Positions 5,541-12,930 of a DNA stretch of 20,689 nucleotides are shown piece after piece. The notes beneath the pieces are model-generated. The model worked only from the letters and a program-made list of their open reading frames with translations, ran no database searches and was not told the origin of the DNA. The DNA comes from an uncultured Deinococcales bacterium (GTDB lineage Bacteria > Deinococcota > Deinococci > Deinococcales > JAAFIG01): assembly GCA_964244895.1 (NCBI GenBank), contig CAXTKV010000083.1, positions 1 through 20,689 on the forward strand, given 5' to 3'. The position numbers were made by a program, and so were the translations under genes. Positions within the stretch are counted from its first letter, which is position 1, and every line of letters begins with the position of its first letter.

Positions 5541-8012
<2,472 letters not shown>

Positions 8013-8134
8013 GGATGCCTCCTTGGTTCCTTGACCTCGCATCGCGAGGGTCGGGGTTGACGCACTTTAAGGGGTGGCGTCGTACCTGGAAGCACACTTA
8101 TGAAAAGGTGGTGCTTGAACCTGGAACTGCCCTG

Positions 8135-8143
8135 AGTCTAACA
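8135..8143 (-). promoter_or_regulatory. candidate extended -10 promoter for lon
   Basis: TG-T-TAGACT on the minus strand in an AT-rich stretch; alternative TAGAAT at 8148-8153. Confidence 0.4.
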
Positions 8144-8205
8144 AGTGATTCTATGAATTGATGGTTACTGGTTTGTTTGTGCGTGCTCTTCGGTGTTCCG
8201 GTAAA

Positions 8206-8263
8206 AACTTTCGTGCTGGACAGTGTTTGTAGTGGCTCGAGAAATGCGTGCTGGACGGTCTAT
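8206..8263. repeat. REP-like paired palindrome, degenerate long form
   Basis: CGTGCTGGACAGTGTTT and GCGTGCTGGACGGTCT; centres 8217 and 8252; weaker third unit at 8181-8198. Confidence 0.65.
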
Positions 8264-8303
8264 TGCCTTGAGGGTTCCTTGGATGTCTTTGCCTGAACTA
8301 CGC

Positions 8304-8334
8304 GGCGCACGGGCGAGACGTTCACCCGTGCGTC
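8304..8334. other. stem-loop downstream of clpX
   Basis: GGCGCACGGGCGA / TCACCCGTGCGTC inverted repeat; no clear U tract. Confidence 0.45.
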
Positions 8335-8380
8335 AAACTCTAAACCCGGTTTCTTGATTCGTATGTATTCTGCGTTTCCT

Positions 8381-9628
<1,248 letters not shown>

Positions 9629-9660
9629 TCAAGCCACCTCCCCGAAACTCGAGACTCGAG

Positions 9661-9708
9661 AAGCACCGTCCAGGACGATGTTTTGTGAATGCATGCGGGT
9701 CGGAGTTC
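9661..9708. repeat. REP-like paired palindrome, 48-bp form (second unit degenerate)
   Basis: AAGCACCGTCCAGGACGATGTTT then GCATGCGGGTCGGAGTTC; centres 9672 and 9697. Confidence 0.75.
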
Positions 9709-9727
9709 TCGAAACGGGAAGCATCCT

Positions 9728-10348
9728 TTAATCCTCGAGTCCCTTCATGCCGTCCGCGAACGCTTTGGGCATGATCTCGACGACCTCGTCGATCAGGCCG
9801 TATTCCTTGGCGTTGGCGGGCGTCATGAAGTAATCGCGCTCCATGTCGCGCATCAATTTCTCGCGCGGCTGAGCGGTGTGCTTGACGTACAAATCCGTCA
9901 TGATGTCGCGCAGGGCCAGCACTTCCTTGGCCTGCACCTCGAGATCCGGCGTGTTGCCACGGAAGCCCGCGCTGCCCTGGTGAATCATGATCCGCGAATT
10001 GGGCAACGCGTTCCGGCGACCCGGCGTGCCCGCCATCAAGATCACGCTGCCCATGCTCATGGCGATGCCCACGCAGGTCGTGCGGATCGGGCTGCGCACG
10101 AACTGCATCACGTCGTAAATGGCGAGTCCCGCGTACACTTCCCCGCCGGGGCAGTTGATGAAGAGTTGAATCTCGCGCTCCGGGTTCTGCGCGTCCAGCA
10201 GCAACAACTGCGCCACGATCACGTTGGCCACCTGCGAATCAATCGGCGTCCCCAAAAAGATGATCCGATCCTTCAAAAGCCTGGAATAGATGTCGTAGAC
10301 GCGCTCGCCGCGACCCGTTTGTTCGATCACATAAGGAATGACGCTCAT
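9728..10348 (-). CDS. clpP: ATP-dependent Clp protease proteolytic subunit ClpP
   Basis: [16 protein letters not shown], nucleophile motif [19 protein letters not shown] catalytic triad. Confidence 0.97.
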
Positions 10349-11597: not shown

Positions 11598-12338
11598 TCA
11601 GGCTTCGACCGCCAGATTTTCCAGATCCACGTTGGAATAGACCTTCTGCACGTCGTCCAGATCTTCCAGAGCCTCGAGCAACTTGACGACCTTACCCACG
11701 TCATCCGGCGAGAGTTCCACCGTGTTCTCGACGGTGCTGGTGAATTCCGCGACCAACGGCTCGAGCTTCTTGGCGCGGAAGCCTTCGGCCACGGCGTTCA
11801 GGTCGGCGAAGGCGGTGTACACGTCCAATCGCGGTTCGCCATCCTCGTCGTAGGCGTCCAGATCATCAGCGCCCAGTTCAATGGCCAGTTCCTGGGTGGC
11901 ATCGTCGTTCTTGGGCAAGGTGATCAAGCCCTTGCGCTCGAACATCCAGGCCACGCCGCCGGACATGCTGCCATTGTGCTTGGTGAAGGCGTGCCGGACT
12001 TCGGGCGCGGTGCGGTTGCGGTTGTCGGTCAGGGCGTAAACCAGGACGGCCACGCCGGACGGCCCGTAGCCCTCGTAGACGACTTCCTCGAGTTGCGCGC
12101 CCTCGCCGCCGCCGAGCGCGCGCTCGATGGCCTTGGCGATGTTATCGACCGGAACCCGATCGGTTTTGGCCGCCGCCAGGACGTTCTTCAAGCTCAAATT
12201 GGCCGTCGGATCGCCCGAGCCGCCGGAGCGCACCGCCGCCGTGATCAGCGCCAGGTGCTTGGAGATCATGCCTCCGCGTTTGTTGTCGGTGATGGCTTTC
12301 TTGCGTTTGATCTGCGACCATTTGCTGTGACCGGACAT
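11598..12338 (-). CDS. yebC: YebC/PmpR (TACO1) family protein
   Basis: MSGHSKWSQIKRKK, YEGYGPSGVA, TDNRNRT, WMFERKG, LEDLDDVQKVYSN; GGAGG 7 nt before ATG 12338. Confidence 0.95.
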   Translation of the reverse strand: MSGHSKWSQIKRKKAITDNKRGGMISKHLALITAAVRSGGSGDPTANLSLKNVLAAAKTDRVPVDNIAKAIERALGGGEGAQLEEVVYEGYGPSGVAVLVYALTDNRNRTAPEVRHAFTKHNGSMSGGVAWMFERKGLITLPKNDDATQELAIELGADDLDAYDEDGEPRLDVYTAFADLNAVAEGFRAKKLEPLVAEFTSTVENTVELSPDDVGKVVKLLEALEDLDDVQKVYSNVDLENLAVEA

Positions 12339-12391
12339 CGTCATTCCTCCATGTGAACGCGTCTCCTCGAGCCTCCGGGCGGATACGGGCT

Positions 12392-12439
12392 TCAGGCCGG
12401 AGGAGGGTAGTAGCGCTCGTAAATGAAACTCTTCGTCAT
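12392..12439 (-). CDS. putative polyproline leader peptide of yebC (MTKSFIYERYYPPPA)
   Basis: ATG ACG AAG AGT TTC ATT TAC GAG CGC TAC TAC CCT CCT CCG GCC TGA; starts 10 nt after TAGAAT and stops 53 nt before yebC. Confidence 0.6.
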   Translation of the reverse strand: MTKSFIYERYYPPPA

Positions 12440-12449
12440 GCGATCGCGC

Positions 12450-12458
12450 ATTCTAGCA
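12450..12458 (-). promoter_or_regulatory. extended -10 promoter for the uORF-yebC transcript
   Basis: TG-C-TAGAAT on the minus strand. Confidence 0.6.
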
Positions 12459-12500
12459 GCGCACCTCGAGCCTTCCAATCCAGTCCCGATTGATCTGCGG

Positions 12501-12599: not shown

Positions 12600-12628
12600 T
12601 TGACACCGTTCAGCCGCTGTACTATCCT
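12600..12628 (+). promoter_or_regulatory. sigma70-type promoter of the tRNA pair
   Basis: TTGACA-17 bp-TATCCT. Confidence 0.75.
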
Positions 12629-12720
12629 GCTGACGCCTTGCGGGTCGGGTTCCTGCCAACCCCGAAGCCCAGAAATTGGGTCGGCACGCAAAGCGGATCG
12701 TCCTAGCGATCACCACGCGT

Positions 12721-12794
12721 TGGGGAATCGTCTAATGGCAGGACAGCCGCCTCTGGAGCGGCCAATCATGGTTCGAGTCCATGTTCCCCAGCCA
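12721..12794 (+). tRNA. tRNA-Gln (CTG)
   Basis: Acceptor TGGGGAA/TTCCCCA, anticodon arm GCCGC-CTCTGGA-GCGGC, GGTTCGAGTCC T arm, encoded CCA. Confidence 0.96.
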
Positions 12795-12853
12795 GCAGTT
12801 CCTCGCGCCGCGCGGGGTGAACGCCTCGCGCGGTACGGGAATGCACCAAGGAC

Positions 12854-12930
<77 letters not shown>

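Follow-up and report, generated by a model that had tools for sequence, protein, structure and literature searches.

A short upstream open reading frame (uORF) with a run of proline codons precedes yebC in an uncultured Deinococcales bacterium, and its pattern of change among related genomes indicates that it is real and selected as a peptide, the proline run being the element that is kept. The window, by which we mean the whole stretch of DNA analysed, is 20,689 nucleotides long. Across one family the leader retains its anatomy, shows coding-type selection and holds a fixed distance to yebC, with a stop codon that is free to move. The uORF is very probably translated and regulatory. The most likely reading, at about even odds in our judgement, is a ribosome-stall sensor: slow translation of polyproline would lead to more YebC by releasing the yebC Shine-Dalgarno (SD) sequence. 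Translation of the uORF, the stalling, its direction of action and the factor sensed are what we infer from the following features and from their conservation.

12450..12478, minus strand: promoter, with -35 TTGGAA (12478-12473), a 17-nt spacer and an extended -10 (12458-12450)
12392..12439, minus strand: near-leaderless uORF, MTKSFIYERYYPPPA and stop, 15 codons, without an SD; kept in 17 of 19 family genomes
12398..12421, minus strand: conserved core Y-E-x-x-[YF]-P-P-P (YERYYPPP in the window), with the Pro codons at 12406-12398
12351..12391, minus strand: spacer between the uORF and the yebC SD, containing the 3′ arms CCGGAGG and GCGUUC and one CTCGAG
12346..12350, minus strand: yebC SD, GGAGG, 7 nt ahead of the ATG at 12338
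12341..12368, minus strand: second SD-like sequence GAGGAG (12368-12363) and mini-ORF M-E-E-stop (12352-12341)
11598..12338, minus strand: yebC (YebC/PmpR family, YebC_I-like), the putative regulated gene, matching NF001030

The extended -10 sequence (TGC-TAGAAT) is followed 10 nt farther on by the ATG of the uORF at 12439, and 53 nt separate the end of the uORF at 12392 from the yebC ATG; the -10 box, the 15-codon uORF and both gaps had been given in the preliminary description and were confirmed on the sequence. Two promoter-like sites occur in 2 kb, versus 0.3 in shuffled sequence. Transcription would start near 12443, approximately 4 nt ahead of the uORF AUG, and the Pro codons are the candidate stall site. 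Rfam returned no match for the leader up to an E value of 5, the neighbouring tRNAs alone being matched. These are tRNA-Gln(CTG) and tRNA-Glu(CTC), which lie divergent from yebC (window 12600-12929, plus strand) behind a promoter of the form TTGACA-17-TATCCT. The stop codon of the mini-ORF overlaps an in-frame yebC ATG at 12344 (ATGA), and placing a ribosome on PPP in the model reduces the opening cost of positions 12378-12363 to 8.8 kcal/mol, from 12.0 kcal/mol without it. As a speculation, the second SD-like sequence and the mini-ORF, seen in the window genome, might form a relay to yebC.

In the window genome the distance from a -10 box to the start of a long ORF without an SD is most often 6-7 nt (62 and 24 ORFs); 5, 6 and 3 such ORFs are found at 9-11 nt. 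At 10 nt the start of the uORF therefore falls off the leaderless peak, and the 5′ UTR would be about 4 nt long. The objection is softened by the SD-less yebC genes of five relatives, in which the corresponding gaps are 8, 8, 8, 9 and 10 nt. In D. deserti, 258 mRNAs with leaders of 1-5 nt are reported, and protein was detected for 150 of these (PMC4007540).

The family comprises 19 mostly fragmented genome assemblies in five genera, kin rather than independent samples, with yebC in all 19 and, split contigs aside, in a single copy in each. The leader is present in 17 of these and in every genus. In one of the two others (G017) the contig lacks the 5′ end of yebC; in the second (G014, 2.3 Mb; L007) the leader is absent and a promoter of the same type lies 8 nt ahead of yebC, which looks like loss of the leader. 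The gene 3′ of yebC differs among the genomes, leaving yebC as the constant target. An attenuator for proline biosynthesis is unlikely, since this 3′ gene varies and none, judged by its N-terminal sequence, resembles a proline gene.

The start codon of all 17 leaders, ATG or GTG, follows a TANNNT box by 8-11 nt and shares its frame with [YF]-PPP. Four lengths from start to PPP occur (7, 8, 10 and 11 codons), and the frame is always kept. The proline runs are 3-5 residues long, the first codon (Pro1) being found 60-70 nt ahead of the yebC start in the 17 leaders. Examples of the peptides are MVYEQAFPPP, MMSYHDAYPPP, MLYENAYPPPPP and VNTVVYEAIYPPP; a metagenome contig supplied an additional leader, MSYHDAYPPPFPRA, the one true member among seven matches, the other six being without the layout. 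Relative to PPP, Tyr occupies position -5 in 15 leaders, Glu position -4 in 14, and Tyr or Phe position -1 in all 17. The first two bases of the Pro codons are invariant, and the third position shows 4, 4 and 3 different bases. Codon pairs compared between genera were synonymous in 273 cases and non-synonymous in 272 when read in frame, versus 80/545 and 37/552 in the other frames, the in-frame synonymous count being somewhat inflated by anchoring the test on PPP. The core idea of the preliminary description has thus come through its principal test, in that the uORF is kept in 17 of 19 genomes, changes by coding-type substitutions and always stands before yebC.

The stop codon of the uORF behaves quite differently from the prolines: it lies 31-53 nt upstream of yebC in eight leaders, at -9 in one and at +14 in seven, and one uORF is fused to yebC. 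Nothing is kept after PPP and the stop wanders, which suggests that what matters happens on the prolines, and not in the peptide product or by coupling at the stop. The fused case is that of G005 (L032), where the PPP uORF continues in frame into yebC. Since all three frames occur among the leaders, a programmed frameshift into yebC was ruled out. The same distribution bears on a reading in which the uORF works in the reverse direction or holds output at a fixed limit, so that read-through feeds yebC by reinitiation or fusion and stalling lowers or caps YebC. The seven uORFs of 17 that overrun the yebC start, the single in-frame fusion and the ATGA-overlapping mini-ORF of the window would suit it. 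We nevertheless hold it to be quite unlikely: nine of the 17 stops lie upstream, eight of them by 31-53 nt and one at -9, so that coupling is not what has been conserved, and cutting back a rescue factor during stalling would make little physiological sense.

The arrangement is specific to yebC in the window genome, where 288 starts follow an extended -10 box and two of them have PPP within the first 20 codons. A looser genome-wide scan (-10-like box, start, PPP) gave 16 lines, in one of which a long ORF led by an SD lay downstream, this being the yebC leader. No run of PPP codons was found within 130 nt upstream of efp at any of 17 readable loci (18 loci, one of them unreadable), which rules out a PPP regulon shared with efp.

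For the wider search we used a pattern of three Pro codons 20-100 nt ahead of the yebC start. It matched 16 of 18 family relatives versus 23 of 345 sampled genomes from the other families of the phylum; the pattern needs a start of the M[AS]GH[S]KW type, present in nine of ten test genomes, so that YebC_II and other starts are missed. Thirteen of the 23 matches were inspected as loci, and none of these had a -10-box start in frame with PPP; among the remaining ten, a -10-like box is located downstream of the Pro run in nine, and one match string is incomplete. Samples from four other phyla (744 genomes) gave 4/221, 9/221, 8/151 and 3/151 matches. The layout was seen in none of the 23 of these 24 that were inspected (G861 was left out); in one of them a TTG follows a -10-like box, yet another such box lies downstream of the run. 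In a looser all-species scan, which is no test of other phyla, a yebC start was found in 1 of 120 among the matches listed (at least 120). The search for PPP uORFs that had been proposed at the outset found the leader in all five genera of the family and, with this pattern, did not detect it in the 345 same-phylum and 744 other-phyla genomes. Among the genomes searched, the yebC PPP leader appears to be confined to one family.

Another family of the phylum, f3, which is probably Deinococcus-like, carries a different element in this place, a conserved 5′-terminal hairpin of the GCGCCC...GGGCGC type 56-99 nt before yebC (L034-L039, L041-L044, L066, L068-L070 and L072). It follows the same TAGAAT/TAAACT promoter, and no start codon is found within its first 17 nt in the 14 loci parsed out of these 15. 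The PPP codons may have evolved from the C-rich arm of this hairpin.

The f3 hairpin belongs with the question of whether the conserved element is RNA, that is, a C-rich 5′ arm related to that hairpin and acting by SD pairing or as a protein-binding site, the reading frame being incidental. The preliminary description had regarded the Pro codons as a direct anti-SD. For the window this is supported by their wobble bases, which are among the best 3% of 64 synonymous choices, and not by the predicted ensemble, in which they form 0.2 pairs with the SD. Any G-rich SD will offer pairing to CCN codons as a matter of course, and overall the wobble bases are not biased towards the leader's own SD (mean midranks by genus 0.03, 0.11, 0.50, 0.49 and 0.70). 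An RNA element would account for the start-less C-rich hairpin behind the same promoter in f3, for a uORF start off the leaderless peak and for the wobble bases that favour SD pairing in genera g1 and g2. It would not account for the strict CCN periodicity with free wobble, the conserved Y, E and [YF] residues, or the in-frame ATG/GTG in 17 of 17 leaders of four lengths, and we find it very unlikely.

How a stall on the prolines might reach yebC was examined by folding. The preliminary description proposed a nested hairpin of three stems, from which a stalled ribosome would free the SD. The stems are complementary and form the minimum free energy structure, but the fold does not go beyond chance (z +0.55), 140 of 200 shuffles folding as well as the window leader. 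Pairing probabilities are 0.47 for CCUCCGG:CCGGAGG, 0.96-0.97 for GAGCGC:GCGUUC, and 0.07-0.17 for UUUCAU:AUGGAG, the stem that covers the SD. For the window the proposed switch therefore fails in the model, because this stem is rarely formed and the SD does not become cheaper to open. With the ribosome on PPP the opening cost of the SD window rises from 4.2 to 5.4 kcal/mol, that of the core SD from 2.6 to 3.0-3.7, and that of the whole ribosome binding site from 7.9 to 8.1-10.6. The unpaired fraction of the GGAG bases also rises, from 0.32-0.65 to 0.68-0.99; the bases immediately 3′ of GGAG, however, become paired in a new hairpin, which raises the cost of opening the SD and the binding site. 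Covarying stems, which had also been anticipated, did not appear: RNAalifold on a MAFFT alignment gave no leader pairs and no covariation, a weak negative, since in some genera the second CTCGAG is out of register in the alignment.

The relatives give a different picture. Their free leaders are predicted to fold so that an inner hairpin is enclosed by pairing of the SD with the Pro codons or the spacer. In 16 of 16 the SD becomes cheaper to open, by 1.3-9.9 kcal/mol, once a footprint is placed on Pro2; in the window the cost goes up by 1.2. When the spacer was shuffled, the drop was matched by at most 2 of 25 shuffles in 10 of the 16 relatives, and in the other six it was no better than in shuffles; for the window the drop was -0.8 and 23 of 25 shuffles did better. 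The model thus predicts SD release by a stalled ribosome in the relatives.

The first arm of a CTCGAG pair lies at Pro1+13 to +15, where the leading edge of the ribosome would be, in 14 of 16 relatives, and both copies, which there usually make up the inner hairpin of the spacer, are present in 12 of 16. CTCGAG is also the commonest hexamer of the window genome (21,883 sites, one per 234 bp, 12.7 times the expectation from base composition); as a palindrome so highly iterated genome-wide, it was ruled out as evidence of a selected hairpin. In one genus CTCGAG pairs occur upstream of efp as well. The element might instead act in transcription attenuation, the CTCGAG hairpin and a U-rich run forming an intrinsic terminator in which a stalled ribosome would cover the 5′ arm. 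The position of the first arm in 14 of 16 relatives would fit this, as would the U-rich runs after the second arm in genera g2 and g4 and the 14 leaderless attenuator peptides predicted for D. deserti (PMC4007540). No terminator was called in the window leader, however, the U run is absent from G000 (the window genome) and most of g5, and the stems are short with large loops; we think this mechanism highly improbable.

The failure of modelled SD release in the window's leader is more readily met if the same stall sensor has mRNA amount as its output, a ribosome parked at the 5′ end shielding the message from RNase J or keeping Rho from loading on the C-rich leader. The uORF lies at the very 5′ end, its stop is free and the structure is not conserved, all of which such a mechanism would allow; RNase J is encoded in the window genome, rho was matched in 18 of 18 relatives, and a Rho-dependent mechanism is described for mgtL (PMC12856214). 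Against this, the leader is only about 100 nt long and predicted to be folded, and the fixed spacing of 60-70 nt is explained less directly than by SD release. Rho was also not found in G000, which is 91% complete, although this is probably an assembly gap. An effect on mRNA amount, the main rival to SD release, is in our opinion unlikely.

The yebC product matches the YebC/PmpR equivalog NF001030 with 269.7 bits (cut-off 243) and TIGR01033 with 237.4 (cut-off 208.75). Its nearest solved structures include E. coli YebC (1kon, E 6e-52), and the TACO1 entries follow at about 1e-22; with E. coli YebC so far ahead, we treat the protein as YebC_I-like. A YEGYGP motif is present and was aligned to 4f3q, and its Tyr would be the counterpart of S. 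pyogenes Y84. Of the conserved Tyr-Glu pair of the latter (Y84/E85), the aromatic ring is reported to be required for activity (PMC12234827). Genes which we read as clpP, clpX and lon are found on the same strand 1.2 kb downstream of yebC (window 5541-10348, minus strand), and in genus g4 clpP directly follows yebC.

EF-P was found in 18 of the 19 family genomes, and that of the window genome has as its best match PDB 1UEB, which we take to be the Thermus thermophilus protein, a match in keeping with Deinococcota. The family EF-P carries an HQKIGRGG loop of the Arg type in 17 of 17 readable loci (G000:C18:9978-10139 in the window genome; L074-L090). Its state of modification may affect the amount of YebC needed.

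According to PMC12234827, E. coli YebC_I relieves a P5 stall in vitro, and does so better than YebC_II, and in Salmonella YebC_I is redundant with EF-P. B. subtilis YebC_I is reported not to rescue stalls (PMC12856214; PMC11990639). The efp defect of B. subtilis is described as suppressed by promoter-up mutations of yebC_II (PMC12856214), which indicates that the dose of YebC matters. By analogy with E. coli YebC_I, the YebC of the window would relieve polyproline stalling.

Returning to SD release, a ribosome would load on the near-leaderless uORF without an SD and reach aromatic-Pro-Pro-Pro after 7-11 codons. With ample EF-P or YebC activity it would pass quickly, the leader would refold, and the yebC SD 60-70 nt downstream would be paired. 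If translation of polyproline slowed down, the ribosome would dwell on PPP and cover the C-rich Pro codons together with the first arm of the inner hairpin; parked there, it would keep the yebC SD open, and more YebC would be made. Such a leader could report a shortfall of EF-P, a shortfall of YebC or the supply of Pro-tRNA.

A YebC-specific reading is suggested by likeness to FXXYXIWPPP, a laboratory-selected sequence which shares the aromatic residue right before PPP and the upstream Tyr (PMC11669330, PMC13410324), the likeness being a lead only, with the register off by one residue. The window peptide has Phe at -7, as does FXXYXIWPPP, and Ile occurs at -2 in 5 of 17 leaders. As described in those papers FXXYXIWPPP is artificial, with Tyr at -4 and Trp as the last aromatic residue, while the yebC leaders have Tyr at -5 and Tyr or Phe at -1. 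Its response to EF-P is reported to be small (PMC11669330, citing Woolstenhulme 2013; PMC13410324), and one construct in PMC11669330 did respond. That the leader is a natural counterpart of this sequence, cleared by YebC and not by EF-P, and that yebC is truly autoregulated, would be a tentative proposal by analogy, and one that we consider rather unlikely.

The published accounts disagree on whether the widespread YebC_I takes part in polyproline rescue (PMC11990639, PMC12234827, PMC12856214). A proline-stall leader kept over five genera before a single-copy YebC_I-like gene would be independent evolutionary evidence for a role in translation. YebC has only recently been reassigned from a DNA-binding regulator to a polyproline translation factor. 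If the YebC-specific reading were true, a rescue factor would be measuring its own activity, and the leader would offer a ready-made YebC-specific stall reporter. In the literature searched, with subscription journals outside its scope, we found no description of a yebC leader or of a feedback circuit on a proline rescue factor.

In leaders of the ermC type a stall exposes the downstream ribosome binding site and the product relieves the stall, a drug being needed. SecM-secA and other monitoring substrates are described as following the plan proposed here, in which the stall exposes the ribosome binding site and the product relieves it (PMC12856214; PMC7897499). SecM is a long secreted peptide freed by pulling force, whereas the yebC leader has 14-34 residues (one being fused to YebC); unlike SecM and the drug-dependent ermC, the yebC leader would report the activity of an elongation factor. 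MgtL, ahead of Salmonella mgtA, is likewise a short Pro-containing leader whose speed of translation controls the downstream gene (PMC12856214). As described there, MgtL senses Mg2+ and acts via Rho on a transporter gene, whereas the target of the yebC leader is a proline-stall rescue factor; the yebC uORF further differs in having no SD and an aromatic-PPP motif. Also close in form are the attenuator peptides predicted in D. deserti, presumably of the same phylum, which have 10-33 residues and are translated without an SD from the 5′ end (PMC4007540). The 14 leaders listed there precede tRNA-ligase or amino-acid biosynthesis genes, and among those listed none is a proline leader and none precedes yebC; they are proposed to be transcription attenuators, and 13 of the 14 start exactly at the AUG. 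By analogy, the yebC PPP leader would work like the SecM- and MgtL-type leaders and the leaderless leaders of D. deserti, as a family-restricted form of leader-peptide attenuation.
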